A stretch of DNA of 64,000 nt from Schmidtea nova (taxonomy: Eukaryota). Below the pieces are notes generated by a model, which was not told where the DNA came from, ran no database searches, and saw nothing but the letters and a program-made list of their open reading frames with translations. The translations under genes were made by a program, and so were the position numbers. Position 1 is the first letter of the stretch. Every line of letters begins with the position of its first letter. The stretch covers positions 257,238,001 to 257,302,000 of the forward strand of contig CM097883.1 of assembly GCA_044892505.1 (NCBI GenBank), read 5' to 3'. Positions 42,287 to 61,798 of this stretch are shown one piece after another.

Positions 42287-42377
42287 TCTACAATGATATA
42301 TACACTTGATTTGTTATCTATTTTTTGATTTTTCTTGTTTTTGTTTTTACATATTTACAATTTTTCGCTTTATTTAT

Positions 42378-42859: not shown

Positions 42860-45800
42860 CTATATCACCATCACTGTCTTTCCTTCGTATCGCTCTTCAT
42901 CTTCTATTTGTCTCCAAAATTCTTTACCTTTCGTCCTCCTTTGGAATTCTTTATGTACTTCTTCCGGTAATTCTATACTGTAGTTCATAATCTTTATATC
43001 TGGCCAATGTGTTATTGGTTTCTTGTTGAATACATCATATATCCATATTATTAATAATACTGTTATTACTGGAATAGTTGCTGCTAGTATTCCTAGACCA
43101 ATTAGTTCTCTAACTTGTTTGTTTACGTCCATCTTCGTAATTTCACTCTGGTTAATCATTGGTCCATATTGTCCCTTTAGTTTATTTAGTAGTTGTTCTC
43201 GTTCTTGTTGTTTTCTTTTAACTTCTTTAATTACTTCTTCCGGCGTCCATCTTGCGTAAGGGTCTATTACTATTTGTTCCGCGTCCATTTGTTTCGTTGT
43301 CTGACTTAATTCTTTAAATTCGAGTTTTCTCACTTTCCCTTTGGACGTTGAGTTTACCGGTGTGTAGTACGTTTCGCATTTTTCCTGCTGATTTCCTAAT
43401 ATGTCCGTCTTTTCTACCGCACATATCTCGTATTCTCTATTAAATTTCAGATTTTTGATACTCATTTCTTCTTTTCCTTTTACGTTTTCGCAGTATCGTG
43501 GCTGTCTTTCTTTTTGTTCCTGGACTACTGCCCAACATATTTCTAACGTTTTATTGTCTATTCTCCATAGTATAAGAGTTGCTGTAGTATTCTTTTCGGT
43601 TTTTATTTGTATTTCTTGGTTTTTCTGTTGTCCATTAGGTTTAAAAGTAGTGGTATACCTCGTTTTTCCTTTGTTCCGTTGCCTTCTGCTTTTTCGCGTT
43701 GTCTTTCCAATTCTTGTTCTGGTGGGTGTTTTATATATTTTGCATTCCAGTTCATTTACTGTTATTTTGTCGCTCTTCCTGATCAGGCATATTTCGTACG
43801 TTTGATTACTTTCTAACCCTTCTATCTGTATTGTGGTTGTTCCTCTGTTTGTTCGACATTGCGGCGGTGTATTCTGGTTTGTTTTCTTTTCCTGCTTCTT
43901 CCAGCATACGCCTTTGACGTCCGGTTCTATTCCGGTTAACTCTAACATTATAGTTGTTCTCCGTTTGGTGCGTTTATTTCTTCTTCCTCGTCGTATGAAC
44001 TTCATTGTTTCCCCAGGTTGAAATGTTTTACAAATCGTCGTTCCTTTCTTGTGTCTTTCTTTTTCTAGTAAACATAGTTCATACGTCCTGTCTGCTTTTA
44101 CTTCTGATATCTTGGTTACTTTATTTGTTTTCCTTTTCCGACTCGTCTTTATTTCGCTTACGCCAATTTCTTCGTTGCTTCTGGCCCAACACTTTGGGTT
44201 GGTGTTTTGGGTGTCGTTCATCTCTGTTACTGCCATTGTGTCAATGTCTATCCCTTCTTCTAACCGTTTTAACATTGTTAATATGAGTGCTAAACATAGT
44301 AATTCTGCTTGGTAGGTCACTCTTTCAGTTTCATTTGTGGTTACTCTTACTTCGGGCCTGTCTATGGTAATTTGTATAGTTGGCGTTGTTCGTCTGTCTA
44401 TTGTCTGATGTTTCTTGTTTTTTGTTCCTTGTGTCTCTGTTCTTCCACACTTTCTTACGACATAGTCTCCTTTGGATGACTGCTGTACTGTTATGGTTAC
44501 TTTGGGTGTTAGGTAATTTGCACATGCAATTGTCTTATGTGATCTCGGATCCTTTGGTTTCCGAACGGTGCACATTCTGTACCAAGTATCTAGCTCTAAG
44601 TCATCGATCTCTATGATTTCTTGCTCATATTCTGAGATCCTGCAATCCATTGGACTATTTTGTCCCGATATTTTGTCCTTTTTTGACCAACATACTCGTT
44701 CGATTCCTTTTGCGTTTCCAATTTGTATTGTCGCTTTTTCTTCACATATCATTCCTTGAGTTGGACTAATTAAGGTCATGATTACCGTTAGTAATAATAG
44801 TTCTGGTTTAAAGAATGGGTTTATTGTTTGTTTGTAGCCTGTTCTTTTTACTTCGTTTTTATTTTTATAGTTGTTGTTTCTTTGTTTCCCAAATTCATTG
44901 TTCTTATCATTTTTCTCTGTGTCCCTTCCTTTCTCTTCACTGTCCTCTTTATCTGATAACTTATGATCCTCTGGATTTTCTCGAGTACTATCGTCGTCGT
45001 TTCCTGTATTGTCACCTCCCCTTTGGTCGTTGAACATGTCGTCCTCGACATTAATTGTTTCTATCATTTTTTCATACGTTATGGTTGTGAGTATACTTGC
45101 TTCGTATTCTTGTGTTTCTGCTTGCTTAGGTATTTCCTTATCGGTTAATTTACAATCTAGAATCTCTTTCTTGGCTTTTATCCAATTATTAAGGTACGTT
45201 TTCATTAGTTCTTTCCATTTGTCCGTACGTTCTGTTTCCTTTGGGTTGTTTGTGAATCGTAAATCTTTTCTTCTCATGAAGATATCTATTATCTTTGGCC
45301 ATTTGTTTATTATTAATGCACACTTTATATACAAATTTTGGCCTTGTTCCATGCACTCGTTGATCCTGAATGCTGGTTCATTGGTGTTTGGGTTCATCCA
45401 ATTGAGTATTGCTTCAGTTAGTTCAGCGTTATGCATCATGGAATGTACGCTAGCTTTTTTAACTGTCCTTGTAAGGTATTCTATTTCCTCCTGATTTGTG
45501 ATTGTTTTTATGAAATTTATCACCTCCCAATTGTGCGCTAACAACGCTACGTCTAGTATTGAGCTGTCTTTGTTAGTTCTTCCCATGAGTCCTGCGCCTG
45601 CTTCGTACAGTTCCTGTAACACTCGGGTTTTTGTGTTCGCTCTTGCTGCGAATATCATGAGGGTGTCTCCCTTTTTATCTTTCATGTTCATGTCACTTCC
45701 GCAATCTTGCATCAACCGTGCAATTTCGACTACCCTCCTATTTTTTCCTGCTCGTAAGGCTCTATGTATTGGCAATACTCCATTCTTTGTTAATAAGAAA

Positions 45801-48800
45801 GTCACTGGCATTTCTCTTTTTATGATCATCATATCGTTTTCATTGTAAGTTCCTTCCGCATATGCGTGTACCTTTTCCACAATTGATCCGAGTATCTCCA
45901 GTGTATGTTTAGAATTTTCGAATTCTGGTAATAGTTCTTTTGCTTTGTCCTGTATCGCATCTAACCTTTCTTGATATGGTACCTCTGCGCTGAAAAGTGG
46001 TGTAACTTTCCTTTTGCTTTCTCTTTCCTTTTGACATAGGAATTGTTTGCATTTTTCGGGGTGGTTTAATATGTCTATTAGTTTGTCATACTCTTCCTCC
46101 ACCGTTTTGTATTTATCTTGAAAATTGGATATATCTTTGTAAGTTATCGTCTTGGTTAGCGATTTTGCACACCATTCCCTAATTTTCCTGAATAATGCTT
46201 CTTTTTCACTTTCGAATTTACACTCCTCTTTGTTTTTGGAAATTATGATATTTCTTCTGTCTAATAACGTTAACAGTGCTTTCTGGTCACAAACGAATTT
46301 TAATAGGAATTGTAATAACGTGTTTTGCCCTTCACTGTATACCTCGTTTATATTTAACACCCATGTATCATTTTCGGATCTTTTCCATTTTATTAGCTTG
46401 CGTATTGTTTTGCAGTTACCGATTTTTATTGCCTCCTTGATTATATCACCTTTGATCAGTTCGTCTATTTCCCAAGTGGCCTTCTCGATTATTTGTTTGA
46501 GCATTATCTGATTTGAGCTCCATATTGCGTGATTCAAGACTGTTTTGTTTTCTCTATCGCGTTCCGTCCAGTTGAAATCGGCATTTATCAAAAGGTCTAT
46601 TATTGCTTTATCCGATTTGTAGATGGCTGCTACCATTAATGGTGTTTCTTGTTCGCTATTCCAAAAACCAAGGTGTTGGTTTGTTTCCTTAGCGATTTTT
46701 AGAAATTCTTTTACTCTCTCTACTTCTCCCCATTTTATGGCGTTATGTAATGCTGGTTGTCCTCCTATGTCTTCTAGTGAAAGTATTTCTGGAATCTTTT
46801 CCAGTAGTTCTGAAATGACTGGTTTTGTTGGTAGTCCCCTTGCGTAATCACTAATTATCGACTGAATATCTCTTAATATATCGTCTCTGACATGCCATTT
46901 TCCCATTATTTCTCTGGCTTTTAGTACAATTTCCTTGTTTCTTTTTTCTCGTTGATTGTTCTCTGCTTCGGTACTTTCATTGGTTGCTCTGAGCATATTC
47001 ATTCTGGCTGTCTGGGATCTGGTTATTATTCGTTCTTCTGGCGCTGTGGTTATTGTCTTTGGTACTTTTTTACATCTGCATGTATTAACGTATATTGGTC
47101 GTATCAATGGTCGATTAACAAGTTTTACCTTCACATTGTTTTCCTTTTTGTATATAACTTCGTAAGGGCCTTTTCCTGGTCTTTGTAGTTTTTTAACGGT
47201 TCCTGGTATTATTTCTGGGGTTTCTATCATCACCCAATCTCCGGGTTTAAGATCATTTGTTTTAACATTTTTCTTTTGATCGTGTAGGTCCTTGTAACTT
47301 TCTTGATAAAACTTTATGTTTAGTTCTGCTGTCTTCCATATCTCTTGCATTCGTTCTTTGAATTTGGTGACGTAATCATCTTCCTCCATATATTGAGACA
47401 AAGGTGGTTGATATTCAAGATCTATTGGCATATTGCATTCCCTTCCATACATTAATTGAAATGGACTCAATTTTGTTGCTGCGTGTATCGACATTCGGTA
47501 TGCCATTAGACATAGCTTTATGTACTCATCCCAATCTGTTTGGTGTTTGCTTACATAATTGGATAACATTCGAATCAATGTGCCGTTAAATCTTTCCGTT
47601 TGTCCATTAGTTTGCGGATGATATGGTGACGTTCGTAATTTGGCTATTCTGAAGTAATTTGTTACTTCATCTAGTATTTCGCTCATAAAATTTGTTCCTT
47701 GATCTGTTAGTATTTGTTTCGGGGTTCCGTATCGACAACATATTTCCTCTACTAAAATTCTTGCTACGGTCTTTGCTTTTTGATCCGGCATCGCAAATGC
47801 TTCAGGGAATTTAGTCAAATAATCCGTTATTACCAATATATATTGATTCCCGTTTAAACTTTCTGGCAATGGTCCTATTACATCCATCGCAATGGTAGTC
47901 ATTGGTTCCGCTGGTATTGGCATGGGTTTTAAGGGATTTTTCCATTTCTTCCCACTATCCTTTCTTGTGGCACAAGTTAAACAGTTCTTTATCCATTCCT
48001 TTACGTCTTCGTCCATTGTTGGCCAATAATATTTTTGTCTCATGCGATTTAATGTTTTCTTATCGGACATGTGTCCTCCCAACTTTCCGTCATGGTATTG
48101 AGTTATTATCTCTTTTCGTCTATTACCTGGCAGACACATTAATCGTTTCTCTCCATCTCGTATTAATAACCATCCTTTTTCTATTGTGTATCGATGTTGG
48201 TATTTCCTCATGTGTTCCTTTAACTCTGCATTGTCTTTGAATACATCCATATTTCGTGAGCTTAGGAATTCTATGATGGGTCTTAGTTCTTTATCCTCTT
48301 GCTGATCTTTCTTTAACTCACTGAAATCCAAATCCTCTGCTATCATTATGCATATTCTTTGCACTTCTGGGTCTGTTAGTTCTGGAAACGTTAATCTTGA
48401 CATGCAATCTGCGTTGGCATTCGCTTTTCCTGATTTGAATTTTATATCTGGTGAATATTCTTGTAATTGCATCGCCCATCTCATTAATCTGCTGGATGTT
48501 TCCTTATGTTGTCCTAGCCATACAAGTGGTTGATGGTCTGTGGTTATGCATATGACGTGTCCCCATAATAGATATTTGAAGTGTTTTATTGCTAATATTA
48601 TTGCCAATGCTTCTCTTTCCGTTACTGAATAATTCTTCTCGTGTTTCTTGAATGTTCTGCTATAATATCCGATTACCCGCTCTTTTCCCTCGTCATCATA
48701 TTGTCCTAACACTGCTCCTGCTGCATATCCACTTGCGTCGGTTGCGAGTAAAAATGGCTTTTTGAAGTCCGGGTGAACCAATATTGGTGCAGTTATTAGC

Positions 48801-51800
48801 TTATCTCTCAATGTTTCAAAGGCTGTTTGTTGTTCGCTTCCCCATATGAACGATACGTCTTTCTTTACTAGCTCCTGGATTGGTTTTGCAATCCCTGCGT
48901 AATCCTTTATGAATTTTCTATAGTAACCGCATAATCCGAGAAATTCTTGGATCTGCGTTATCGTCTTTGGTACTGGACATTCTTTTACTTTATCAATGTT
49001 TCTGGGATCTGGTTCCTTTCCTTTTGCGGACACAATATGTCCTAAGAATGTCACTTTCTCCTTTGCCCAATCGCATTTCGATGGTTTGAGCTTGAGTTTC
49101 CATTGTCTCAATCTAACAAATACATCTCTGATATCTTGGATGTGTTGTTCAAATGTGCTTGAGTAGATCAGTAGGTCGTCAATGTAAACCATGCATTGTT
49201 TTATGCCGTGGGTAACGAAATTCATACATCTTTGAAATGATGCTGGCGCATTGGTTAGTCCGAATGGCATTTTCCTAAATTGGTACAAGTCTCTTCCGAT
49301 AGTGAAAGCAGTTTTCTCTTTGTCTTCCTCCTTCATTTTAATTTGCCAGTATCCGCTTTTCAAATCCAATGATGTAAAATATGCCGCTCCTTGTAATGTC
49401 AATAACATCTCGTTGATGTCCGGTAATGGGTAGGTATCCCTTTTTGTAACTGCATTTAATCTCCGATAATCGATACAAAATCGTTGTGTTCCGTCTTTCT
49501 TTTTCACCATTACAACTGGGAATTGCCACGGTGAGCAGCTTGGTTCAATTACTTCTGCGTCTAGCATTTTCTGTACCTCTGCTTCTGCTACTGATTTTTG
49601 CGCTTCAGCTAACTTGTATGGTCTTAACGCAATAGGCGTTTCGTCTGTTAGGGGAATCGTATGTAGTGTGACGTCGCATGTCCCTAGATCTAAATCGAAT
49701 GCTGCGAATATATCTTTATATTCTATCAGTAATCTTTCTAGCTGCTTCTTTTGATCCTCATTTAATAGTTGGCTATCAATGTTCCAAGTGGGTTCCTCCT
49801 CTTTTACTCCTTCTTTTATTGGTATTTCGATATCCATCATTGGAGTTAGTTTACCTAGTCTTTCATTTTCATAAATTATTTTATCCTCTTCATCGAAATT
49901 TACTACAGTTATTGGGATTTCTCCGTTGTCATTCGCACTCACTAATCCCCTTGCCATTGGCAACGACTTTCTCTTTTCAAATCTTTTACTGGGTTCAAAA
50001 ATCATGTCACCTTCTATTGTAGGGTCTATTTTTACGAAGCATATTTTCTCTCTCCGTGCTGGTACGATTATTTGTTTCGAACTTGTTACTTTTGCTTCTA
50101 TTGCGCATATCTGTCCTGTCCTATCCTTTAATCTCATTGTTCCGAGGTCAATAACTATTTCTTTAAATAATGCTGGCATCAGATCCGTGCCTATAATGCA
50201 TGGTACGCTCAGTGCTGGTATTACTGCTACGTACGTTTCGATTTCCGTGTTTTGATGTTTTATCTTTACCCACCATCTTCCGGCAACTTCTACTACTTCT
50301 TTACTGCATGCTATTACGTGAACGTTGGTTCTCTCAATATCCCGTCTTTGTTCTTGTGGTATCCATTTTATATCTATTGCTGAGATATTTGCTCCTGTAT
50401 CAATCATCGCTTCAATTTCCCTTCCGTTAATTTCGATTGTTGTAGTTAATACTGGACCGGTGTTTGATGACATTACTGCAATTGTATGTGAGTCTCCTTG
50501 CGGATCTACGCTTCTGCACCGTCTCGTTCTATAGTCTTCTGGTATCATAGGATATATGTTTGTCATCGGCATCATTTGCATTGTATTTTGTCTCATCCCT
50601 GGTGTTGGTTCTTGGTACATGGTTGGTGGGGGTGCGTAACACTTCCACATTTCCGCTGGATTCTTTTCGACATACTGTGGTACTTGATTTTTAAATACTT
50701 GACCTCCTTCGTTATCATCATCATCGTCGTCACTGGAATCGTCTTGGGTTCTGTACCCTTTCATTCTTTCCCATAGTCCTTTTCTCTCTTTCTTTAGTTG
50801 TTGTCTTGCTTGCTCGTTATTCATTATCTTTTTAAATTTTCGTCCCACCTCTTCATCGGTTCCTTTCATTTTTGCCAGTATTTTTAGGAGTCTCTTTATT
50901 CGGTGAATATCTTTCGAATGACCGTGTAATACCATTGTTTTAGCCAGAAATGGTAAGAATCCTACCACCAATTTCCAATTTACTTTCTTTTCTCTTTTAT
51001 AGATGTCAAAACAGGCTAACATTTGCGTTATTATTACCCGTATTATTTGTATAATTAGTATAACACCAAGTATTCCTGCCATCATTTGTCCAAATATTAA
51101 AAATCTTCCCCACATCGCTTTCATCATGTTTTCCGTTGCCTTCTTAAAGTGGGCTGGTGACAATAATAATTCGTAATTTGGTCCACCTTGGTAATTTGTT
51201 CCTCCTGTTATTGTTACAATACTGGATAACACCGCTTCTCGTCTTGCCGGAAATAGTATGTTTTGTCTTGCTGCTTCTAAATCCTTTGCGCTATAGAATC
51301 CCATATTGCTTACGTCTACGTCTTTAAATTTTCGTCCTTTTGATAGTTGCATCAATTCAAATTCCCTTGGTGCTGGTACCTCTGTTCTTGACGGAAACAT
51401 AACCCAATTTCCGTCTGGTTTTTGGTATAGTGGTCCATATGCGTTGCTGCAATTGAAAGGATTTGGTTCGAAGCTTATTGGATTTATGATTCTTGTCACT
51501 GGTTGTACATATCTTACTTTCCCTTTATATTCGATTTCTAGTTCGTTAGTACACTGACCTGGTTGTAGTTTTGTCATTGTCGCTACCTTCGCATTTGTCT
51601 TTTTACATATGTATACGTACATGACCTCTCCGACTACTCTTCCAAAATGACCTTCTCTTAATGGTAATAATGGCATTGCACTATCCGGGTTTGTGATTGC
51701 TACTGCTAATTTTGTCTTTAATATTTCCCTATTTAATATGCAATCGTTGTTTATTAAATCGTAATACACTTTTTGTAGTGACGCTTGTCCTCTATGGAAT

Positions 51801-54800
51801 AGAAAATCCATTTTATTGTTCATGTAAAGGTGTAATTTAACATCGTTCGTGTGTACTTTGCGTTTCGCACTAGGTACTTCTTGTTTTGATACAAAAATGC
51901 CGGGGTAGTTGGTTTCCAACATGGCTACTCCGCATTTCAAGGCTGTTTTTCCTTTTACAAACCTCATTCCGATATCTGCATCTGAGGTAATTAGTACCGT
52001 TGGTGTATTTCTCATTTTAATTTGTTTTTCTTGTGTTCGGGTTTCAATCTTTTTCTCTCCCCGTACTGTGTCTTGAAGTATTTTTCCTCTTGCTGCCTCG
52101 TCTTCTTCTTCCTCTTGGAAGGTTTTCCCTTGTATCTCATCGAATTCTGCTTCCTTTAACAGTTGTAGTTGACATTCCTTTCCTCGTATCTGGTAGGTTA
52201 GGGTTGACATACCAGTCTGACAAGTGTTTGACTCGATTTTGCACATAGGTAGAGTTTTCATTTCTCCCGTCGTTGGATCGAAGAATGCCTCGTACGTTTT
52301 TAGTTCCACTGTATACGTATCTATTACCACTAGGTTTGTTGCTGCTACTCCGAATATTGGATATGTTGCTCCTTGGCAGTACCCTTCTCCTCCCGTAATA
52401 GCTCCTGCTACATAATATGTTTGTTGCAATATCACTCCCGTTTTTCCTCTTATCTTTACTCTATCTCTAGTCTCTACTTCTCCATGTTTAAATAATTTTT
52501 CACAGTCTTCTCCTTGCAGCATTACCGATTCTCTTTCCGTTCCTGGCATCACGATTGCTGAATAATGGCGGTGCCCACAATAAAAAGCAAATCTGGTTTT
52601 ATAAACTTTGCATTCTCTGACCATTGTTCTTATCAGTTCAGCTTCCTGATATACGTGGTATAATTGTCTCTTTTTTAATGTTTTTAGCTCCGTTGGGGTT
52701 GCGTCTTTACATTGTTCTGTCCCTCGTAATGAGTATTTTTCACCTAATGCCATTTGATCACAATCGAATACTTCAAATGCTGTTGCTCCGTCAGTACTAA
52801 TCATCCATATTAACATCATCATAATGATAGAACTCAGGTTTAGTGATGATTTCCCGTTTCCTGTTCCCGACTTTTCCTTTTCCAATTCTCCCAATATCTC
52901 TTCGAATTTCTTTTTCATATTTTTGGCTTGGTTTTTCTTTTGGTTCGTTTTTGTGAATGTTTCCCATCCTCCTTTACTGATGATGTACGGTTCTATTTCT
53001 TTCTCTATAATTTTGGCTGTATTCTTTATATGTCTTTCAAGTGCTGTGGGTTTCAGTCGACCTCTACTCAGTGTCAGCAGATTGTAGATGGTGTATGCCA
53101 TAGCTATTAAATATTTGTTATCCGTCTCTGCTCCTTCCGTTAACTTCTTTATCAACATCGTGGTTCCTTGCCAATCTAGGTGGTTTGACCTTGTCTTCTC
53201 TTTTATTAGTTCTGGTAGGATTGGTGCGATGGCGCTATGCAGTGATTTCGCCCTTTCGCTTATTTCATTTATTCTCCACCATTTCTTTAATTCCGGATCG
53301 ATTATTGCCAGTATTTCCATTAACATCTTTGATATCCATTCCTCGCCTTGGTATGTTTGTGTTGTTTCTTTTTCTTTCGTTACGGCTATTTTATTTAGTT
53401 TCTTTAGACACAAATCCCATTGATCCCGTCTTTTTTCCTCTCTTGATTTTATAACTACATTTGCTGGATCCATCTTGGGTCTACCTCTAGGTCGTTTATC
53501 CATTGTCGTGCCCGTTTCTACTAATCTTGTTTCTCGTCCAGTTTCTTCTGTGACGTCTCTTGGTTCATTGGCTCTTTCTTCTAACCATCTTTCCATTTCT
53601 TGTGTGAATTGTACGTTTTCTACATTTGCCCTCCTTGTTTCCTCTTCTGCTATTTCATTTACTTCTTCGATGATTATTTCTTGTTCAACTTCATCTTCGG
53701 TGTTGGTTACCGGTATTGCTGTTGGTAATTCCTGAATTCTTTCGAAAATATTATCATCTTTCTCTTTTGTTAGCTCTATTAACTCCTCTAACATATCATC
53801 GCTATCTGTAAAAATTTCGTCTACATCGTATGGTTCTGGTGGTGTTCTTTCTCTTGTCTCTCTTGGTGTTGTTCTAGCTTGTTCTGAGCTTGTTCCTGGA
53901 GTCCTTACCGATTTCATTGGGCTCGGCGTACTCATACTTCCTTTTGGTTTCTTTTCCTCTTTCAATTTCAATGGTTGACCTGCTATTGCTGCTACTGTCA
54001 ATGTATTTGCGATATCTAATTGCGCTGGCGTTATTCCAATTTCTAAGCTGTTATCTAATGATCGTCCTTGGTGTTGTAAATGGAATGGTGGTTCATATCT
54101 CAATTTCTTTTTAATGTCTCGAACTTTCTCCGCTATCCCTACCCAAAACTCTTCCTTTTCTTGGTTCGGATATACTATTCTTAGGTGTACTTTCTGTGGC
54201 GATTCCTGCGAGAATTCTTGGTTTCTCCATTTTTTAATTACGTGATCCAATTGTTCTGGACACCACTCGTTAACTCTTTTGTATTCGGCGATTGCTTTTG
54301 CTACTTTACGCAAGCATGTTATGTCTTCTCCATTAACTACGAAAAAATCTGCGAGACCTTTTACTACTTTTCTCTTGCCGTGCGCATTGGTTTTTAATAT
54401 TTCGACAAATTCTTCCGTTTTTTGTTTTTCTCTTTCCAACCACATGGTTGTCGTTTCTGGTCCGTCTAAATCTGCTGGCATGGCTTTTCTTGTTACCATA
54501 CAGACTCTTCCGGTTTCCGGTTTGTGATCGTCTTCTATGCCTATTCCGTATTCCTCTTCGTATTCGCCTGCTTTTGGTTCCCAACATTTTCCTCGTTCGT
54601 TCCATTGTTTTTCTACAGGTGTTCGTAATCGTCTGTTGAGATTGAGTTCTTCTAATACATCTTCCCATTCTGGCCAAATCCGCCAATTTCGATAAATGTC
54701 TACTATTTGTTGTAATTTATGCACAACTTCTTTTTGTCGTTCCCGTTCTCTTTTCTCATCCTTAGCAGTTTCTCTTGGTGTATCGTCCATTCTGATAACG

Positions 54801-57800
54801 TGGATGGTTTGGTGATTATCCCATATACCAATTTTATATAGCCGTCTTTCATCGTGATCCCATAATACATGTTCGTTGTATTTCATGATTATGTCATCTT
54901 CCCATTCTTCTTCTGGTTCTCTTTGTAATAGTGTCTCGTTGATGACATTTACTAATTCTTTTATGGTACAATCTGCTACCACTTCAATTTCTTTGGTATC
55001 CTCATTAGGTAACTCTACTGCAATTTTCAGATCTGTTATTTTCCCTTGTCTGAACATTGCTTTTCCCATTTTTGCAATTACTTTTCCGTATGAGATCTGT
55101 GACCATCTCGTGTGACTTGTGTCACGTATGCATTCGATACATCGTTTCAACTTTTCGTATTCGCTTCTCATTAACTCCTTTCTATGTTTTTTGATTTGTG
55201 GGATGATTTGTTCTATCATGGAATTTAGATTTCCTCGTAAGATTCGTCCTTTCTCATATTCTAACCGTGGTTTTATCTTCCTCTCGAAACACATATTTGC
55301 TTCTTTTGCTACTTCTTGTAGGTTCTCTTCTCTCTTATCATCGCATATCGATAATGTTGTCACCTCTCCTGGCCATATGCCTGTTTCTATCAAATGCGTC
55401 CTTTTCTTCACTAGTCCATTCTGTGAATAGAGGAATTTGTTTTTATATGAACTCCCTAATCTGTCTTCCACCCATTGATAAATATCTTCCGTGAGTGGAG
55501 TTTTGATCCAAATCCTTGGCAAACATGTTTTTATCTCTATTAGGATTATATATTCATGGAGTGGTTCTTTTAATAATTTTCCTACGTATTGGCTTAGTGT
55601 TTCTACTTCCCGGCCTGGTAACCACTCTTTATAGTTCATTTGTAATATTGCTCTCATGAATTTTCTATAGTGTTTCTTGTCAATGAATTCCTCATTATAT
55701 ATTACTTCTAGCGTATTATCTAATAATTTCTGGATCTCGTCTTCTTTTACTTGAATAGTTTCTGGTGTCTTTACTACTTCTATCTTTTTGTCTTCAATTT
55801 CCGGTTCGTCTAGCATGTCCCCTGCTAGACTACTGACGTCACTATCCTCTTCATCGTCTGAAAAATTCTTTGCCTGGCCTCTCAACATGTTAATGTGTTT
55901 TATCTGGTTAATTTCACTTGGTGTATTTTCCGTTGGTCTTGTTTCACTTTTAATAGCTTTTTGTGTTGATTCACTCTTGTCGTCTACTACTTCGACCTTT
56001 CTCAATTTTCGTTCTAACTCGTCTATTTCTCCCAACCGTCTTCGTATCATTTTCCCTTTAAATATTCGACTGATTCGTGTTTCGTGACGCACTGGCGATG
56101 GAATTCCTTCTGGTTCTATTTCCTTGATTACCATCACATTTCTTTTTGTCTCTACTACTCCCATGTTTTCCCATGTATCCGTTAGTTTCAATTTTACTTC
56201 TGGTGCACCTTCTATTTTTAGGAATGCTTCTCTGGGCAGTTTCGTTACTCCTGGAGCCATTTCATTCACTTTATTGAACAATATTTCTACTTCTTCCTTT
56301 ATGTTATATTGGAATCGAAACACGTGCTTGTTTGGCAAAATTACCATCATTCCTCTTTTCCCGAGTTTCCTTTTCTCTTCTTGGTTCCCTTCTTTTTCTA
56401 CTTCCTTTTCTGTTTCTTTTTCTGCTTCTTCATCTTCTTGTATTATCTCTTTTCGGCCTTCGTTGTTGGTTGGATTTGGGTTTGTTGGATTTATTTCTGG
56501 TACAGTCTCTTTCTCGTGGGTATTTGTTTGATTGGTTGCTCTCATCATATTAATTCTTAGAGGTTGTCGTTCTCTTTCTTGCTGTTTTTGTTCCTCTTCT
56601 CTTTGTATTCTTGCCCATTCCTGAGCATGTCGTGCTTGACTTTCCCGATTCAATCGTTCGTTTTCGCTTTCTATTTTTCTCATCATATTGATTTGTTGTT
56701 GACCTGTTTGCGGATTTCCTCTGGTTGTATTGTTTATCAGCTCCGTCAATCTTTGGACCTCTTGCATTAAATGTATCTCTTTAGTGGTATTTTTATTTTG
56801 GTTATTATTATTACTATTTGGTTGGTTTCCGTATTCCGGTTGGTTTCCATTATTTGGCTGATTTCCATAATTCTGTCGGTTTCCACCAGTTGGTTGGTTG
56901 CCATAGTTTTGTCGGTTTCCGGTATTCTGCCAGTTTCCTCGTTGATTGCTTCTTTGTCCGCAATTTCTTGATAGGTGTCCAGGCCGTCCACAATTAAAAC
57001 AGGTTATTGTGTAACATCTGCTCTCTGAATGCCCTTTTACTCCACATTTTCCACAATTCAAGTTCTGATAACATTCTTGTTGCCAATGTCCCAATTTCCC
57101 ACATGTTTTGCATTGTTTCGTTGGTCCTTGGGGGTTGTAATTGTTTTGATTTCCGTAATTTGATACTTTATTCCCTTCATTCCTTCGTTGCGGTGGTGGT
57201 CGGTTTAATTGTTGTGAATTTGGAATGTGGTTATTCAGGTTCACTTCTTGTTCGTTTTGTGCTGTATCCATAGCTAAATAGATTCTACCATCATTTCCTA
57301 TCATGTGTAGTTCAAATCTATTAGCTGTTTCTAGTGCTTGGTCGATGGTTTTACAACCTTGACATCCAACTTGCGCTCTTATGTCGGGTCTTCTTAATCC
57401 TCCCACAAAGATAGCTGCCATTAACTCCTCATTTATTGGGCTGTCTTGATTAAAGATCAACTTTGCTAACTTTTTCAATTCGCTTGCATATACCGCATTC
57501 GATTCATTTATCTTTTGTTTCCTCATTGAGAATTCCGTGAATGCCTCATTCAATACTTTATTTATTCCAAAGGTTTGTTGGAAAAAGTCCTTTATCGCTG
57601 ACCAACTTGTAGGTGGATTAGTTCCATTCTTTGCTTCCAAATATAGATCTAATGCGCTATCTTTCAAATATAGCTGAATTCTGCTTACAGTTGTTTCTGG
57701 TTTCCACTTGCATACTTCCACGAATATGCCAAATTCCTTTAAGAAAGTTTCTAATTTACTCGCATCTCCATTAAACGGTTCTCCGGAAAATTTGTCTTTT

Positions 57801-58249
57801 ATCTCTTCTCTTGGTTCGCTCATTTCAATTCCGCTGTCTGTAGTTATTTTACTTTCGTTTCCTCTTGTTTCTAGTTCACTGTTAGGTTCGTCACTTGAAT
57901 TTCGGTCGATCTCAGTTTCCTTTGCTGATTCGTTATCTGATGCTTTACTATCGTTATCGGTATCGTCACTTTCTGTTTCTTGTTCTACTTCGTCTTCTAT
58001 TTCTTCTATATAATCGTTGTTGGTTTTGTCGACTTCTATTTCACTTATTGGGTTTCTCTCGGGTTCTGCTTGATTTTCTTTGTTGCTTGAACTGTTGCTT
58101 GTTACTGATAATTTATCGTTTTCGATAATCGACTTTTGTATTATTATCTGCCTTGCTTTACTTCCTTTTGGGCCTTTCTGATTATTATTCTTGGTAGCTT
58201 TATTCTTTTCTGCTGGTTTTATTATGACACTCTTTTCTCCTTTTCTCAA
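42860..58249 (-). CDS. gag-pol: 5129-aa polyprotein: Gag (3 CCHC), 2 UBL-like, AT-hook, Bcl-2-like, env-like glycoprotein, PR, dUTPase-like linker, RT, RNase H, IN, ankyrin repeats, FN3-like membrane protein
   Basis: CCHC at 56960-57113; DTG at 50393-50401; YIDD at 49175-49186; TDAS at 48731-48742; IN GGH..CLTC, AMDVIG, TDQGTNF, TNGQTERFN and GPY; ankyrin TPLMVAA-type repeats; hydrophobic spans near 52810, 51060, 44780 and 43075. Annotated start is TTG; first ATG near residue 143. Confidence 0.96.
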   Translation of the reverse strand: MRKGEKSVIIKPAEKNKATKNNNQKGPKGSKARQIIIQKSIIENDKLSVTSNSSSNKENQAEPERNPISEIEVDKTNNDYIEEIEDEVEQETESDDTDNDSKASDNESAKETEIDRNSSDEPNSELETRGNESKITTDSGIEMSEPREEIKDKFSGEPFNGDASKLETFLKEFGIFVEVCKWKPETTVSRIQLYLKDSALDLYLEAKNGTNPPTSWSAIKDFFQQTFGINKVLNEAFTEFSMRKQKINESNAVYASELKKLAKLIFNQDSPINEELMAAIFVGGLRRPDIRAQVGCQGCKTIDQALETANRFELHMIGNDGRIYLAMDTAQNEQEVNLNNHIPNSQQLNRPPPQRRNEGNKVSNYGNQNNYNPQGPTKQCKTCGKLGHWQQECYQNLNCGKCGVKGHSESRCYTITCFNCGRPGHLSRNCGQRSNQRGNWQNTGNRQNYGNQPTGGNRQNYGNQPNNGNQPEYGNQPNSNNNNQNKNTTKEIHLMQEVQRLTELINNTTRGNPQTGQQQINMMRKIESENERLNRESQARHAQEWARIQREEEQKQQERERQPLRINMMRATNQTNTHEKETVPEINPTNPNPTNNEGRKEIIQEDEEAEKETEKEVEKEGNQEEKRKLGKRGMMVILPNKHVFRFQYNIKEEVEILFNKVNEMAPGVTKLPREAFLKIEGAPEVKLKLTDTWENMGVVETKRNVMVIKEIEPEGIPSPVRHETRISRIFKGKMIRRRLGEIDELERKLRKVEVVDDKSESTQKAIKSETRPTENTPSEINQIKHINMLRGQAKNFSDDEEDSDVSSLAGDMLDEPEIEDKKIEVVKTPETIQVKEDEIQKLLDNTLEVIYNEEFIDKKHYRKFMRAILQMNYKEWLPGREVETLSQYVGKLLKEPLHEYIILIEIKTCLPRIWIKTPLTEDIYQWVEDRLGSSYKNKFLYSQNGLVKKRTHLIETGIWPGEVTTLSICDDKREENLQEVAKEANMCFERKIKPRLEYEKGRILRGNLNSMIEQIIPQIKKHRKELMRSEYEKLKRCIECIRDTSHTRWSQISYGKVIAKMGKAMFRQGKITDLKIAVELPNEDTKEIEVVADCTIKELVNVINETLLQREPEEEWEDDIIMKYNEHVLWDHDERRLYKIGIWDNHQTIHVIRMDDTPRETAKDEKRERERQKEVVHKLQQIVDIYRNWRIWPEWEDVLEELNLNRRLRTPVEKQWNERGKCWEPKAGEYEEEYGIGIEDDHKPETGRVCMVTRKAMPADLDGPETTTMWLEREKQKTEEFVEILKTNAHGKRKVVKGLADFFVVNGEDITCLRKVAKAIAEYKRVNEWCPEQLDHVIKKWRNQEFSQESPQKVHLRIVYPNQEKEEFWVGIAEKVRDIKKKLRYEPPFHLQHQGRSLDNSLEIGITPAQLDIANTLTVAAIAGQPLKLKEEKKPKGSMSTPSPMKSVRTPGTSSEQARTTPRETRERTPPEPYDVDEIFTDSDDMLEELIELTKEKDDNIFERIQELPTAIPVTNTEDEVEQEIIIEEVNEIAEEETRRANVENVQFTQEMERWLEERANEPRDVTEETGRETRLVETGTTMDKRPRGRPKMDPANVVIKSREEKRRDQWDLCLKKLNKIAVTKEKETTQTYQGEEWISKMLMEILAIIDPELKKWWRINEISERAKSLHSAIAPILPELIKEKTRSNHLDWQGTTMLIKKLTEGAETDNKYLIAMAYTIYNLLTLSRGRLKPTALERHIKNTAKIIEKEIEPYIISKGGWETFTKTNQKKNQAKNMKKKFEEILGELEKEKSGTGNGKSSLNLSSIIMMMLIWMISTDGATAFEVFDCDQMALGEKYSLRGTEQCKDATPTELKTLKKRQLYHVYQEAELIRTMVRECKVYKTRFAFYCGHRHYSAIVMPGTERESVMLQGEDCEKLFKHGEVETRDRVKIRGKTGVILQQTYYVAGAITGGEGYCQGATYPIFGVAATNLVVIDTYTVELKTYEAFFDPTTGEMKTLPMCKIESNTCQTGMSTLTYQIRGKECQLQLLKEAEFDEIQGKTFQEEEEDEAARGKILQDTVRGEKKIETRTQEKQIKMRNTPTVLITSDADIGMRFVKGKTALKCGVAMLETNYPGIFVSKQEVPSAKRKVHTNDVKLHLYMNNKMDFLFHRGQASLQKVYYDLINNDCILNREILKTKLAVAITNPDSAMPLLPLREGHFGRVVGEVMYVYICKKTNAKVATMTKLQPGQCTNELEIEYKGKVRYVQPVTRIINPISFEPNPFNCSNAYGPLYQKPDGNWVMFPSRTEVPAPREFELMQLSKGRKFKDVDVSNMGFYSAKDLEAARQNILFPARREAVLSSIVTITGGTNYQGGPNYELLLSPAHFKKATENMMKAMWGRFLIFGQMMAGILGVILIIQIIRVIITQMLACFDIYKREKKVNWKLVVGFLPFLAKTMVLHGHSKDIHRIKRLLKILAKMKGTDEEVGRKFKKIMNNEQARQQLKKERKGLWERMKGYRTQDDSSDDDDDDNEGGQVFKNQVPQYVEKNPAEMWKCYAPPPTMYQEPTPGMRQNTMQMMPMTNIYPMIPEDYRTRRCRSVDPQGDSHTIAVMSSNTGPVLTTTIEINGREIEAMIDTGANISAIDIKWIPQEQRRDIERTNVHVIACSKEVVEVAGRWWVKIKHQNTEIETYVAVIPALSVPCIIGTDLMPALFKEIVIDLGTMRLKDRTGQICAIEAKVTSSKQIIVPARREKICFVKIDPTIEGDMIFEPSKRFEKRKSLPMARGLVSANDNGEIPITVVNFDEEDKIIYENERLGKLTPMMDIEIPIKEGVKEEEPTWNIDSQLLNEDQKKQLERLLIEYKDIFAAFDLDLGTCDVTLHTIPLTDETPIALRPYKLAEAQKSVAEAEVQKMLDAEVIEPSCSPWQFPVVMVKKKDGTQRFCIDYRRLNAVTKRDTYPLPDINEMLLTLQGAAYFTSLDLKSGYWQIKMKEEDKEKTAFTIGRDLYQFRKMPFGLTNAPASFQRCMNFVTHGIKQCMVYIDDLLIYSSTFEQHIQDIRDVFVRLRQWKLKLKPSKCDWAKEKVTFLGHIVSAKGKEPDPRNIDKVKECPVPKTITQIQEFLGLCGYYRKFIKDYAGIAKPIQELVKKDVSFIWGSEQQTAFETLRDKLITAPILVHPDFKKPFLLATDASGYAAGAVLGQYDDEGKERVIGYYSRTFKKHEKNYSVTEREALAIILAIKHFKYLLWGHVICITTDHQPLVWLGQHKETSSRLMRWAMQLQEYSPDIKFKSGKANANADCMSRLTFPELTDPEVQRICIMIAEDLDFSELKKDQQEDKELRPIIEFLSSRNMDVFKDNAELKEHMRKYQHRYTIEKGWLLIRDGEKRLMCLPGNRRKEIITQYHDGKLGGHMSDKKTLNRMRQKYYWPTMDEDVKEWIKNCLTCATRKDSGKKWKNPLKPMPIPAEPMTTIAMDVIGPLPESLNGNQYILVITDYLTKFPEAFAMPDQKAKTVARILVEEICCRYGTPKQILTDQGTNFMSEILDEVTNYFRIAKLRTSPYHPQTNGQTERFNGTLIRMLSNYVSKHQTDWDEYIKLCLMAYRMSIHAATKLSPFQLMYGRECNMPIDLEYQPPLSQYMEEDDYVTKFKERMQEIWKTAELNIKFYQESYKDLHDQKKNVKTNDLKPGDWVMIETPEIIPGTVKKLQRPGKGPYEVIYKKENNVKVKLVNRPLIRPIYVNTCRCKKVPKTITTAPEERIITRSQTARMNMLRATNESTEAENNQREKRNKEIVLKAREIMGKWHVRDDILRDIQSIISDYARGLPTKPVISELLEKIPEILSLEDIGGQPALHNAIKWGEVERVKEFLKIAKETNQHLGFWNSEQETPLMVAAIYKSDKAIIDLLINADFNWTERDRENKTVLNHAIWSSNQIMLKQIIEKATWEIDELIKGDIIKEAIKIGNCKTIRKLIKWKRSENDTWVLNINEVYSEGQNTLLQFLLKFVCDQKALLTLLDRRNIIISKNKEECKFESEKEALFRKIREWCAKSLTKTITYKDISNFQDKYKTVEEEYDKLIDILNHPEKCKQFLCQKERESKRKVTPLFSAEVPYQERLDAIQDKAKELLPEFENSKHTLEILGSIVEKVHAYAEGTYNENDMMIIKREMPVTFLLTKNGVLPIHRALRAGKNRRVVEIARLMQDCGSDMNMKDKKGDTLMIFAARANTKTRVLQELYEAGAGLMGRTNKDSSILDVALLAHNWEVINFIKTITNQEEIEYLTRTVKKASVHSMMHNAELTEAILNWMNPNTNEPAFRINECMEQGQNLYIKCALIINKWPKIIDIFMRRKDLRFTNNPKETERTDKWKELMKTYLNNWIKAKKEILDCKLTDKEIPKQAETQEYEASILTTITYEKMIETINVEDDMFNDQRGGDNTGNDDDSTRENPEDHKLSDKEDSEEKGRDTEKNDKNNEFGKQRNNNYKNKNEVKRTGYKQTINPFFKPELLLLTVIMTLISPTQGMICEEKATIQIGNAKGIERVCWSKKDKISGQNSPMDCRISEYEQEIIEIDDLELDTWYRMCTVRKPKDPRSHKTIACANYLTPKVTITVQQSSKGDYVVRKCGRTETQGTKNKKHQTIDRRTTPTIQITIDRPEVRVTTNETERVTYQAELLCLALILTMLKRLEEGIDIDTMAVTEMNDTQNTNPKCWARSNEEIGVSEIKTSRKRKTNKVTKISEVKADRTYELCLLEKERHKKGTTICKTFQPGETMKFIRRGRRNKRTKRRTTIMLELTGIEPDVKGVCWKKQEKKTNQNTPPQCRTNRGTTTIQIEGLESNQTYEICLIRKSDKITVNELECKIYKTPTRTRIGKTTRKSRRQRNKGKTRYTTTFKPNGQQKNQEIQIKTEKNTTATLILWRIDNKTLEICWAVVQEQKERQPRYCENVKGKEEMSIKNLKFNREYEICAVEKTDILGNQQEKCETYYTPVNSTSKGKVRKLEFKELSQTTKQMDAEQIVIDPYARWTPEEVIKEVKRKQQEREQLLNKLKGQYGPMINQSEITKMDVNKQVRELIGLGILAATIPVITVLLIIWIYDVFNKKPITHWPDIKIMNYSIELPEEVHKEFQRRTKGKEFWRQIEDEERYEGKTVMVI

Positions 58250-58798
58250 CGGGATTACTTTTGTATACTCAATTTTCTTGTCTTATCGTGTTCCGATTCT
58301 TTTCTTCCTTAGTTGATTGGTTTGGTTTGATTGATTTATCTAAAATACAAATGTCACTTCAACGATACTCTATTGTTATCGTTGCGCTTTTATTCCCTTT
58401 TTACGGGACTTCTCATTACTGGGTTTCTATTATTTTTCCCCATTCCCAGATTCCCCTTTATTTAAGTCTATTTAAATTATCTATATACTAGTCACAATTA
58501 TCTATTTAGTCATAACAATTATCTATCGGTTATTAAAATACATCAATTATTTTTCCCGCGGTCTCCCAATTTATTTGTCGTTCGAACGCTCTAATTCCCT
58601 GAGTCATTTGACTCGATTATTATTTTTTCATCTCTTTATCTTTCTCTCTGCTAGCCTCTAATTATTAATTCTGCCGGTCTTTCCGGTCAGCTCCTATTTC
58701 TCGATTCTACTTGCATGCATTATTTTAGGTCGCATAATCAGCTTTACTCGCATTTCTCTATTATCGGTGCGCACTATTCTCATTATCGTCGACGATCA

Positions 58799-59012
58799 CA
58801 ACTCTGGGCCTATATTCCCTCTGTTGTTATTTCTTATCACTTGCAACCCTGGGCCTATATTCCCTCCGTTGCTACTCAAACGATTGTAACCCTGGGCTTA
58901 TATTCCCTCCGTTACTATCTTCCTTTAATTTTAAATAATTGCAACCCTGGGCCTATATTCCCTCCGTTGCTACTCAACAATTGTAACCCTGGGCCTATAT
59001 TCCCTCCGTTAC
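58799..59012. repeat. Five copies of an (aacc)ctgggcctatattccctccgtt motif in the element B leader
   Basis: Copies start near 58801, 58843, 58887, 58940 and 58982, with variable spacers. Confidence 0.9.
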
Positions 59013-59057
59013 TATATATCCGGATATCCCTATTGGCTCCTTTGGCCTCTAATTAAT

Positions 59058-59224
59058 ATCAATTATCTCAAATGGCTCTTATGGCCTCAAATTCATATCT
59101 CAATTATCTTAAATGGCTCTATTGGCCTTAAATTCATATCTCAATTATCTCAAATGGCTCTATTGGCCTTAAATTCATATCTCAATTATCTCAAATGGCT
59201 CTATTGGCCTTAAATCATATCTCT
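59058..59224. repeat. Four copies of a 41-bp tandem unit in the element B leader
   Basis: Unit aattatctcaaatggctctattggccttaaattcatatctc. Confidence 0.9.
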
Positions 59225-59267
59225 CAATAACGCCTAGCTAGGTCATTCAATATGGCTCTTTGGCCTC

Positions 59268-59422
59268 AACCCTTTGTTTCAAGGGACAAACCGCTGATAA
59301 CCCTTTGTTTCAAGGGACAACCTCTAATAACCCTTTGTTTCAAGGGACAAACCGCTGATAACCCTTTGTTTCAAGGGACAAATTCTAATAACCCTTTGTT
59401 TCAAGGGACAAACCGCTGATAA
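59268..59422. repeat. Five copies of an alternating 31/30-bp unit, each containing a small hairpin
   Basis: aaccctttgtttcaagggacaaaccgctgat alternates with variants ending aacctctaat or aaattctaat; ccctt-N6-aaggg stem. Confidence 0.9.
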
Positions 59423-59897
59423 CTTTTCCTTAACCGGTTAATCGTAATTCTTAACTTCGCTAGCGACTACAATTTCTCAGCTGAGTTCTCTCAATTTCAT
59501 GCGAGCTGATTATGCACCTCTTATTTTTCTCTATAATTCCTCGATTCTTTGTTTTATTACTAATTCTTTCGCTGATCAGTCATAATTCAATTTTTATTAT
59601 TTTCTCTGCGCGCATCTTACCTCCTCAGGGTTTTCCCTATTTCTCTCCCCAACCAAAATATACAAAAAGATCGCGTTGGTCTACTAATGCGGGATGTGGT
59701 GATCAATCACATCACAAAAGCTTTCCAACATTTGCGATTGGCCCCTTTCTATATACCCCGAGTGGGTTGATCAACTGGTACCTCCCAATGGGTGCTTAAC
59801 GGACTACTTGACAGTAGCTCAAAAATTAATTAACATTGTTGATTGCTCCCCTGACTTTGTCATTCGATACAATATATTAACACACTCTAAATATTTA

Positions 59898-60359
59898 TTA
59901 TAAATAAACCACAATTTTATCAGCTACAGAGAAATTGCACATGGGGCACTCATCACACTTATTCGCACAGTTTTTACAGAATCGAAAATGTCCACATGGC
60001 AAAAACATTATTTGGATTTCACTGTCTTCGCATATGTAACATTGTTTATATTGTTTTGCTGCCTCGACCCCTTGCGACATCCATCGGTTATATGTTAGAC
60101 TTAACTGCTGTTCTATATGTCGGCATCTGATATTCAACTCGGCATCCTCTAATCGTGCTTTGTACCATTTATATCGCGTATTTATATCGAGTTTATTTAC
60201 TTTCTCTATGATTTTTATTAACTCAGTTGTTTCCTCAGTTTGTGTCGTAGGTTCCTCATATTCGGATGCTCTTATTCGGGTTATTTTTTCGCAGACTGTC
60301 TCAAATGTATCGTTCTCGGTGTTGAAAAATTCTTCGATTTCTTTCAGTTTTTCCTCCAT
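59898..60359 (-). CDS. 153-aa protein with a C-terminal IAP/MDM2-type RING finger
   Basis: CYICEDSEIQIMFLPCGHFRFCKNCANKCDECPMC followed by a terminal hydrophobic KIVVYL, as in IAP-type C3HC4 RINGs. Confidence 0.85.
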   Translation of the reverse strand: MEEKLKEIEEFFNTENDTFETVCEKITRIRASEYEEPTTQTEETTELIKIIEKVNKLDINTRYKWYKARLEDAELNIRCRHIEQQLSLTYNRWMSQGVEAAKQYKQCYICEDSEIQIMFLPCGHFRFCKNCANKCDECPMCNFSVADKIVVYL

Positions 60360-60662
60360 TTCCTAGATAATTTATTTAATTACTGTGTTAATATTATTCG
60401 AAAAGTAGTACTGTGTTTCGTTTTCGACAGTTTATAGCCTCCCCCCGTGTTTCGGTAAATTGTCGTCCCGACCTGTTATTTATGAATGCATTTGTTCAAT
60501 TTATCTACTAATTTGTTTTAATTCTCTGTTTGTAATTATCTATTTCCACGCAACTCACTTTTATCTCGATTACTCTTTCGGTTACTATTTCTACTCACAA
60601 AATTCTTATTTTAAATTTCTCTGTTGTCATTGGGTTCGCATTTTCGCATAAAAACAAAGTTG

Positions 60663-60680
60663 ATCCCGGCTGAGCCCCCA
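60663..60680 (-). promoter_or_regulatory. Primer-binding site of element B (tRNA-Pro type)
   Basis: TGGGGGCTCAGCCGGGAT, 6 nt inside the 5' LTR boundary; identical to the element A PBS and spacer. Confidence 0.88.
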
Positions 60681-61213
60681 AATTTATGCTGGGATTATGG
60701 GTGGGTTTTAAGTAATTCAAATAAACAATTAATCATACTAGGGATTCCGCGCCCATAACCATACATAACATGACTACTACACGCGTATGCCCTTGACTAT
60801 TCCCTACTAGTCAAGTTGGTACTGCATACGGTGGTGGAAAAATGATGGGCAGGTGAGCTTTGTCGCCAAAACTACTCCCCATTTATCTTCCCTCGGGTTC
60901 TTGCTGCCGATAGAAGGTCTTACGCATTTACATTCTATGGATGTTCGTTTCCTACTGAATTTTATACTACATATACTTATGATCTATCACACGCTTTTCC
61001 CAATGACGCTCTCCCTCGCTGTTCTACAAGCCTACGAAAACTCTCGCTGCTAAGTAACGGTCGGTGTAGGTTTTACGATGCGATTTTTAGTTCTACGAAT
61101 TACTTATGTAGTCTTATTTTATTTAGTGAAATCCCACGATGAGAGAAAAAATTTACACAGTAATACTTTATTAAAATAATAAAGACAGGTTGTTATGTTA
61201 CATGGAGATTTTC

Positions 61214-61798
61214 CTATTCAAACTCCAGGCTAATCTCCTGGATTAACTCTGCTTCGGTTAAGGAGTTCAGGTGGTGGATTTGTTCGTCCAGGCGCCTTGC
61301 AAATTCTCGGCGACGACGACGCTGTCGCGATCCCATTCGATGTTTTCGAAGCTGTGGGTTTATGACCGGTGCTGACGCTATTGTTCTCGGGGGATCACTG
61401 GGAAAAATAGGCAAATCTTCCGTTGTAAGAGTGGGTGCCATGATGATTTCCTCTTCCGTCCCGCAAGCGACATCTTGGTGAGTGCATTGTATCCAGCGCT
61501 GAGCCGTGATCGGCCGGATTAGCGCTCGTAATTCGGAGTCGATGTAACTTCTTGTTACTGCGTTCAGGCAATTTCGGAGTTCTCGCTGGACGGCATCTAA
61601 TTCCAATTTGGTTGTAGCCAATGCTTCCTGCACTCGCTCGAGTTTTTTCGACTGGTCCTTCATCTGTTCGGGCGAGAACCACTTCGCTTTCAATTCATCA
61701 TTGGCGACCGTGAGTCGCTTGATCTGTCGCTGCTGGTCCCTCAGCTTTCTCTCTTGAATTTGTCCCATGATTTTCTTCGAATTTTCTGAAGTCGGCAT
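61214..61798 (-). CDS. LTR-encoded 194-aa protein; 5' LTR copy
   Basis: Identical translation to 36153-36737. Confidence 0.6.
   Translation of the reverse strand: MPTSENSKKIMGQIQERKLRDQQRQIKRLTVANDELKAKWFSPEQMKDQSKKLERVQEALATTKLELDAVQRELRNCLNAVTRSYIDSELRALIRPITAQRWIQCTHQDVACGTEEEIIMAPTLTTEDLPIFPSDPPRTIASAPVINPQLRKHRMGSRQRRRRREFARRLDEQIHHLNSLTEAELIQEISLEFE

Follow-up and report, generated by a model that had tools for sequence, protein, structure and literature searches.

Burro-type planarian retrotransposons are the closest described systems to the locus analysed here. They have been described as carrying a BCL2-like motif that is preceded by a ubiquitin-like one, with Env lying in frame after BCL2 and ahead of the protease, and a Burro-like element of Dugesia tigrina has a first open reading frame (ORF1) of 5,140 amino acids (aa), with a MATH domain in a separate accessory ORF (PMC6431247). 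The window under study, a 64,000-nucleotide stretch of the Schmidtea nova genome (assembly GCA_044892505.1, contig CM097883.1, positions 257,238,001 to 257,302,000), holds an element that is, matched by description to published Burro, a Burro-type planarian retrotransposon. Like Burro/GYPSM1, it is a giant (28.3 kb here, about 30 kb there), many-copy Ty3/gypsy element with long terminal repeats (LTRs) of several kb (3,242 bp here), and one frame of about 5,000 aa encodes Gag, a BCL2-like motif, an in-frame Env, protease, reverse transcriptase (RT), RNase H and integrase, and ankyrin repeats. MATH/TRAF cargo is likewise shared, and the main frame is 5,140 aa long, as is ORF1 of D. tigrina. It differs in that its separate TRAF-like ORF lies 3' of the main frame, whereas PMC6431247 places it upstream; in its three CCHC knuckles, against two in the D. 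tigrina element according to the same paper; and in that no Pfam match to a BIR domain was found in the ORFs scanned, which did not cover all short or spliced ORFs. That a Bcl-2-like domain precedes Env in Burro elements is thus already known (PMC6431247). Section 7 of that paper contains no structure, Bcl-2 homology (BH) motif analysis or signal-peptide reading of it, and we found no treatment of the domain's fold, anchor or function in the literature searched (Grohme 2018 and Lee 2026 were not covered and may treat it further). The present analysis adds a test of the fold, conservation across the families and the observation that the groove is degenerate. We propose that the polyprotein carries a diverged Bcl-2 fold that is tethered to the endoplasmic reticulum (ER) by the stub of the Env signal peptide and is pro-survival without the groove chemistry of the NWGR motif, a reading to which, taken as a whole, we assign a probability of roughly one half.

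A sequence-only reading of the window had proposed a Bcl-2-like domain from a helical region ending in YIISKGGWETF. This motif lies on the minus strand where it had been placed, and an AlphaFold2 model built from 24 element rows and no host row is all-helical (predicted local distance difference test, pLDDT, 74.7; predicted template modelling score, pTM, 0.69), with about eight helices predicted to pack as a bundle around hydrophobic helix 5 at its centre. When the model was compared with 48,161 chains using VIA-align, the top match was Bfl-1 (Z 13.9, rmsd 2.9 over 138 residues, with model residues 28-168 corresponding to aa 1641-1781), followed by Bcl-xL (Z 13.1), Hydra Bcl-2-4 (12.9), BAX (12.3) and BAK (12.0). 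The first 35 of the 50 rows are Bcl-2 folds, the poxviral rows among them included, and the first unrelated row scores Z 5.4. Poxviral non-apoptotic folds score lower (A52 Z 7.7, A46 6.6, B14 5.4) than the cellular pro-survival proteins, at 12-14. A Foldseek search of the PDB, a check that had been suggested, listed 48 rows, every one a Bcl-2-family entry (best E 2.2e-3). The best viral match of the model is a herpesvirus v-Bcl-2 (E 0.016, TM-score 0.60). A second, low-confidence model (pLDDT 55.8), of one of four sister element families (family C) and built from sister families only, without the window's own family (A), also matches Bcl-2 proteins, with a best E of 7.4e-4. As modelled, then, the domain is a diverged Bcl-2 fold, and the refutation that the sequence-only reading had named, a predicted structure other than a Bcl-2 bundle with no profile support past the GGW match, did not come about. 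Outside the structural match, families A, B and C share an extra L-x-x-I-A helix before helix 1.

In the sequence itself, GGW occurs once in the 5,140-aa frame against 0.18 occurrences expected, and the pattern aromatic-aliphatic-xxx-GGW-xx-F, written after the motif had been seen, would be expected 7e-5 times. The BH2 signature W-I-x-x-x-G-G-W is kept, its first W being Y in the window family and W in families B to E, and GGW is invariant in all 24 aligned element rows, which were picked by this motif. A profile built from the four sister families alone finds aa 1628-1778 as the sole significant stretch among the window's 256 frames (E 1.4e-5; next best 0.72). The domain scores 28.2 bits against this profile, whereas 1,000 shuffled versions reach at most 8.7, and another 1,000 that were shuffled with the GGW block left in place at most 18.2. 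Without that block, the part before BH2 still scores 12.6 bits. The homology therefore reaches beyond the GGW motif. Profile-profile alignment of the window family with its sister families by hhalign gives a probability of 92.9 (E 3.7e-7, 126 columns), and the profile of families B to E matches Bcl-xL at E 1.1e-7. The Pfam Bcl-2 model (PF00452) is matched at E up to 1 by 21 of the 24 rows (best 2.4e-8). A caveat on the homology is that families B and C had been picked up through their match to Bcl-2 and that the rows were trimmed at GGW for the alignment. Some copies of B and C pass the curated cut-off of 31.4 bits, at 31.4-34.9 bits, and the window domain misses it. As judged from these profiles, homology to Bcl-2 proteins is detectable only by bridging through the sister families. 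No usable match to the domain was found in the ESM Atlas, none among 1.84 billion protein representatives, and none in a 5.8-billion-protein set queried by region and by alignment; such blanks are weak evidence because these sets are mostly microbial.

Families B and C came from a genome search with the Pfam Bcl-2 model and families D and E from a separate search with an Env model; since such searches score the best candidates only, there are at least five element families. Each of B to E (L081-L084) has a compact single frame of about 3,000-3,400 aa in the order Gag, Bcl-2, Env, Pol, and its helical domain closes with a GGW that lies 52-67 residues short of the conserved start of Env; the order Gag, Bcl-2, signal-like segment, Env, Pol is constant in all five. 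No ankyrin match was found in the fetched parts of L081-L084, three of which are incomplete at the 3' end. Identities of domain, Env and RT are 39, 71 and 80% between B and C, 50, 85 and 91% between D and E, and 18-25, 35-39 and 50-53% between A and the others. In a tree with long branches and about 146 columns, seven element rows stand on one side of a branch from 14 host-type rows (support 96/95). This split, and identities that track Env and RT, fit one old capture followed by vertical descent, and the comparison suggests that the domain was likely captured once from a host gene. A grouping of the element rows with L036, L038, L050 and relatives (support 65/40) picks out no host donor. The domain is under purifying selection, its core having a ratio of nonsynonymous to synonymous substitution rates (dN/dS) of 0.05-0.08 when compared with five sister-subfamily copies; that it has been kept in families with RTs of only about 50% identity suggests a lasting hold over the fate of host cells. 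The 14 host-type Bcl-2 matches are L031-L039, L042, L050, L052, L056 and L059; GT directly follows the final GGW codon in six of them, which suggests a shared intron there.

The sequence-only reading had also noted a hydrophobic span about 35 residues after the motif, and had proposed that a Bcl-2 tail anchor doubles there as the Env signal peptide. An uncharged hydrophobic run of 19 residues does begin 35 residues past the GGW motif, at aa 1812 (52849..52793), just outside the interval 52940..53430 that had been marked, and Env follows directly. We reasoned that Env needs a signal peptide because its position is internal to the polyprotein, and the segment reads best as Env's own cleavable signal peptide. 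The Env start motif was found in 64 of 80 loci, one of which was dropped for want of an in-frame GGW; in all 63 remaining loci the Env start is preceded, in one register, by basic residues and then a hydrophobic core, with small residues at -3/-1, although these loci represent five families in three deep lineages and not 63 independent cases. If the span is the Env signal peptide, any Bcl-2 anchor would be a stub of that peptide, terminal only once Env has been cleaved off, and for such a stub a tail-anchor-like topology is plausible. The anchored capsid proteins of flaviviruses offer an analogous N-in/C-out signal stub. Of the proposed double role, the signal-peptide half is consistent with cleavable-signal anatomy in all five families, and the anchor half is weakened by a segment that, in the window family, is short and only moderately hydrophobic.

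In the mechanism that we propose, the internal signal segment would open translocation of Env at the ER and would very probably be cleaved after aa 1835, freeing Env at aa 1836. The chances seem to us evenly divided that the stub would then persist at the C-terminus of the product and anchor it there, oriented N-in/C-out in the manner of a tail anchor, with the domain on the cytosolic face of the ER. We would say much the same of the next step, in which the element protease would free the domain from Gag near aa 1259-1263 and leave a membrane-bound product of about 575 aa. As to its role, we lean slightly towards a domain that would be pro-survival, or would dampen death signalling, by non-classic contacts. 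A recurring domain-border motif occurs on the minus strand at 56779, 56695, 56557, 55897, 54508, 50485, 50113, 48358 and 47005. Its places include the end of Gag, both sides of the protease, and the RNase H/integrase and integrase/ankyrin borders, making these candidate protease cuts, and four candidate motifs at aa 502-796 and one at 1259 lie between Gag and the domain. The window family has 13 matches against a shuffle mean of 2.7 and maximum of 9, for a pattern that was written after the sites had been seen. According to a second-hand statement in the part of PMC13465017 that we consulted, the IAP-like (inhibitor-of-apoptosis) cargo of Burro1 protects planarian stem cells from apoptosis; together with this cargo, the TRAF, RING and ankyrin cargo of the present element points toward a pro-survival reading, and the Bcl-2-like domain would be a testable second arm beside it in planarians. 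A more tentative extension, which we consider rather improbable, is that a cassette of ubiquitin-like segment, Bcl-2, signal peptide and Env is ancestral to the planarian gag-env-pol lineage, the stub anchoring a groove-remodelled ER Bcl-2 such that each Env would deliver one survival factor where Env folds; the L-x-x-I helix could then be a protease-released groove lid.

Several observations weigh against the ER-tethered pro-survival reading. On the structural side, the confident model is one of five AlphaFold2 models, the other four having a pLDDT of 50-59, and none of its Foldseek matches reaches E 0.001; in addition, BAK and BAX also score Z of about 12, and the fold therefore does not separate pro-survival from pro-death. 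Taken as a single sequence, the window domain gives E 0.1 with PF00452 (13.6 bits, model positions 69-100) and no Bcl-2 match in the PDB by phmmer, and a window-family profile against the PDB gives no Bcl-2 match either, only one unrelated match at E 1.3. Selection does not single out the domain, since dN/dS is equally low in the linker, the signal segment and Env. For the anchor, the signal segment reaches a 19-residue Kyte-Doolittle maximum of 1.47, below that of the Env transmembrane helix (2.57) and that of the second such helix (2.65); the -3/-1 register behind the 63 loci was placed by eye, using permissive sets of residues; and signal peptide peptidase could remove the stub. The border motif is scarce in families B to E, with 1-2 matches each. 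Finally, the groove is degenerate. At the position of N-W-G-R, which the sequence-only reading had rightly called unrecognisable, T-D-N-K is aligned and caps helix 5 of the model; the five families read T-D-N-K, D-K-D-K, N-R-D-R, D-K-E-V and N-R-E-V, with the glycine absent from all 24 element rows, and a strict BH3 (L-x-x-h-G-D-x-h) is matched in none of the five family frames. Of NWGR, even the highly diverged vaccinia F1L has kept this glycine alone, and it depends on the glycine for protection from death induced by staurosporine; changing it also disables Bcl-2 and KSHV (Kaposi's sarcoma-associated herpesvirus) Bcl-2, according to the portion of PMC2836074 that we consulted. The domain may still be anti-apoptotic, as first suggested, with glycine loss in all five families counting against it, and the sequence-only interpretation as a whole is partly supported.

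The same groove bears on the best surviving alternative, that of a classic viral Bcl-2 whose groove binds the BH3 helices of host BAK/BAX/BOK-like proteins and blocks mitochondrial apoptosis. The whole eight-helix bundle is closest to Bfl-1 and Bcl-xL, BH2 GGW is kept in all families, and in families A, B and C the place of the BH1 arginine still holds a basic residue, K or R. Against this, each of the five families has D, N or E in place of the BH1 glycine, and nearly all rows have lost the tryptophan; the glycine requirement of F1L counts against classic BH3 capture, as does the disabling of Bcl-2 and KSHV Bcl-2 by its mutation (PMC2836074, as consulted in part); and a signal-peptide stub would locate the domain at the ER, not at mitochondria. 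NWGR occurs in only 2 of the 14 host-type Bcl-2 matches of the genome, which may mean that the host's own family tolerates glycine loss. We class the domain as Bcl-2-like and not as canonical pro-survival because it fails at both BH1 and BH3, and we regard classic BH3 capture as possible but doubtful. The W of one family-C copy (L041, NWDR) was considered as an ancestral residue and rejected, three of the four family-C rows reading NRDR.

A structural role, in which a domain still attached to Gag would act as a matrix-like membrane adaptor and carry Gag to the membrane that receives Env, its Bcl-2 ancestry being incidental, strikes us as unlikely. It would agree with a place between Gag and the Env signal that is constant in five families, even in the compact frames, with co-divergence of the domain with Env and RT, with the erosion of the death-regulatory motifs, and with the scarcity of the candidate protease motif between Gag and domain in B to E. 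The window family, on the other hand, has such motifs at just this place, and the surrounding cargo is of the signalling type. A gag-env-pol survey of other phyla, moreover, has no match for 'bcl' in its main text (PMC13524379).

We consider a pro-death or membrane-permeabilising role, BAK- or BOK-like and serving to aid particle release or to remove competing cells, very unlikely. BAX, BAK and BOK structures do score Z 11-12, and the BOK-like host matches also lack the BH1 glycine; well over a hundred near-intact copies would nevertheless be costly if toxic, and there is no BH3 aspartate for homo-oligomer formation. The other cargo of the element family is, moreover, reported to be anti-apoptotic (second-hand, in the part of PMC13465017 consulted). 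That GGW arose by chance in some unrelated helical region, a reading in favour of which the single sequence stays below every cut-off, is practically ruled out by the profile bridge and the two separately built models, and a separate host gene nested in the element is ruled out by the continuous frame and the recurrence of the domain in every family.

The element itself (Table 1) is flanked by a 4-bp target-site duplication, CTTG (35622-35625 and 63929-63932), and its two LTRs show zero mismatches over 3,242 bp; it is therefore a very recent insertion. Its main frame runs from Gag, with the three CCHC knuckles, through a region without family, the Bcl-2-like domain and the signal peptide to Env, and then through protease, RT, RNase H, integrase and ankyrin repeats to a C-terminal membrane protein. 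For a 236-aa stretch around the Bcl-2-like domain the genome holds 1,421 candidates, and all 150 that were scored match. Two subfamilies, about 98% and 84% identical, make up these matches. The stretch is free of stops in 141 of the 150, and frames of at least 5,000 aa contain 17 of the best 30 copies. A search of sequencing runs listed no RNA run carrying the stretch. Upstream of the domain no Pfam family was matched besides a weak Ubiquitin_4 match (E 0.067) to a ubiquitin-like segment at 54773-55072 (minus), which fits the Ubi2/SUMO-like motif of PMC6431247; by eye, ubiquitin-like segments also precede the domain in L081-L084. An AT-hook-like motif similar to that of the window lies at the same place in family B. 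At its other end the main frame is predicted to finish in a type I membrane protein (aa 4494-5083; 43034-44803, minus) with a signal-like segment, about 550 aa of repeated Cys/Trp units and a strong transmembrane helix. Its ectodomain matches no Pfam family, and the repeats look, to our eye, presumably fibronectin-III-like.

Further ORFs of the element, all on the minus strand, lie at 39730-40830, 39075-39665 and 42381-42737, 3' of the main frame; none has a significant Pfam match, two are coiled-coil-looking and one has a hydrophobic span. Within the LTR lie an ORF of 198 aa (61217-61810 and again 36156-36749, minus) and one of 176 aa (62118-62645 and again 37057-37584, minus), likewise with no significant Pfam match. 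Just inside the 5' LTR, 18 bases at 60663-60680 (minus) resemble what we take to be a proline-tRNA primer-binding site.

Table 1. Features of the Burro-type element and of its Bcl-2-like region (window coordinates)
Feature	Position	Strand	Basis or remark
Complete Burro-type Ty3/gypsy LTR element, 28.3 kb	35626..63928	minus	LTR pair and target-site duplication
5' LTR, 3,242 bp, TG...CA	60687..63928	minus	
Accessory ORF with C-terminal C3HC4 RING finger (E 8.7e-12), 5' of main frame	59898..60362	minus	
Single open frame, 5,140 aa stop to stop	42860..58282	minus	
AT-hook-like motif KRPRGRPK, aa 1596-1603	53474..53497	minus	
Extra helix before helix 1, aa 1615-1639, L-x-x-I-A, BH3-like without aspartate	53366..53440	minus	outside structural match
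Predicted Bcl-2-fold domain, aa 1641-1781, helices 1-8	52940..53362	minus	structural alignment of model
ETDNKYLIAMAY, aa 1719-1730	53128..53093	minus	
Degenerate BH1 position TDNKY, glycine lost	53111..53125	minus	alignment; cellular pro-survival proteins have NWGR plus a hydrophobic residue
BH2-like motif YIISKGGWETF, aa 1766-1776	52955..52987	minus	
Charged linker from helix 8 to signal segment, aa 1782-1810	52853..52939	minus	
Predicted Env signal peptide, aa 1811-1835	52778..52852	minus	basic n-region, hydrophobic core, A-x-A before conserved Env start
Env, class III-type fusion glycoprotein ectodomain and transmembrane helix, aa 1836-2420	51023..52777	minus	Pfam Monjiviricetes_fusion, E 4.9e-69
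Protease, RT, RNase H, integrase	47501..50500	minus	Pfam
Ankyrin repeats (Ank_2, E 4.6e-14)	46481..46750	minus	Pfam
Accessory TRAF-like ORF: RING-like and zinc fingers, coiled coil, MATH (E 2e-21)	40910..42313	minus	
3' LTR, 3,242 bp	35626..38867	minus	

Outside the element, the window contains a second, related Gag frame of 1,030 aa (615-3704, minus; Retrotrans_gag and CCHC knuckles), upstream of which lies a 56-bp tandem array (4675-5975), and a small LTR element (19971-25765) with 604-bp repeats that are 99.2% identical and pol-like ORFs in separate frames. Two related host ORFs, at 29363-30412 and 18464-19444 (minus), share 74% DNA identity, and the former has a weak match to rhodopsin-type G-protein-coupled receptors (E 3.6e-5).

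Among known systems other than Burro, Burro1 expression is treated in PMC8532177, whose consulted part has no match for 'bcl'. [quoted passage not shown] The cellular Bcl-2 proteins (Bfl-1, Bcl-xL, Hydra Bcl-2-4) have in common with the element domain the eight-helix bundle (Z 12.9-13.9), the GGW of BH2 and a region from helix 4 to helix 8 that can be aligned by profile. Identity to them is only 9-16%, and the element domain differs in its replaced NWGR, the missing BH3 aspartate and the extra front helix, as well as in being embedded in a polyprotein, where the hydrophobic segment on its C-terminal side is internal and resembles a signal peptide. Large DNA viruses characteristically carry Bcl-2 mimics, and herpesvirus v-Bcl-2, BHRF1, African swine fever virus A179L and the poxvirus proteins F1L, M11L, A52, A46 and B14 resemble the element domain in having a captured fold and eroded BH motifs, but are stand-alone genes of such viruses. 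From A52, A46 and B14, which are poxviral Bcl-2-fold signalling inhibitors, the element domain further differs in that its model is structurally nearer to the cellular proteins, and from F1L in that the latter keeps the BH1 glycine (PMC2836074, as consulted in part).

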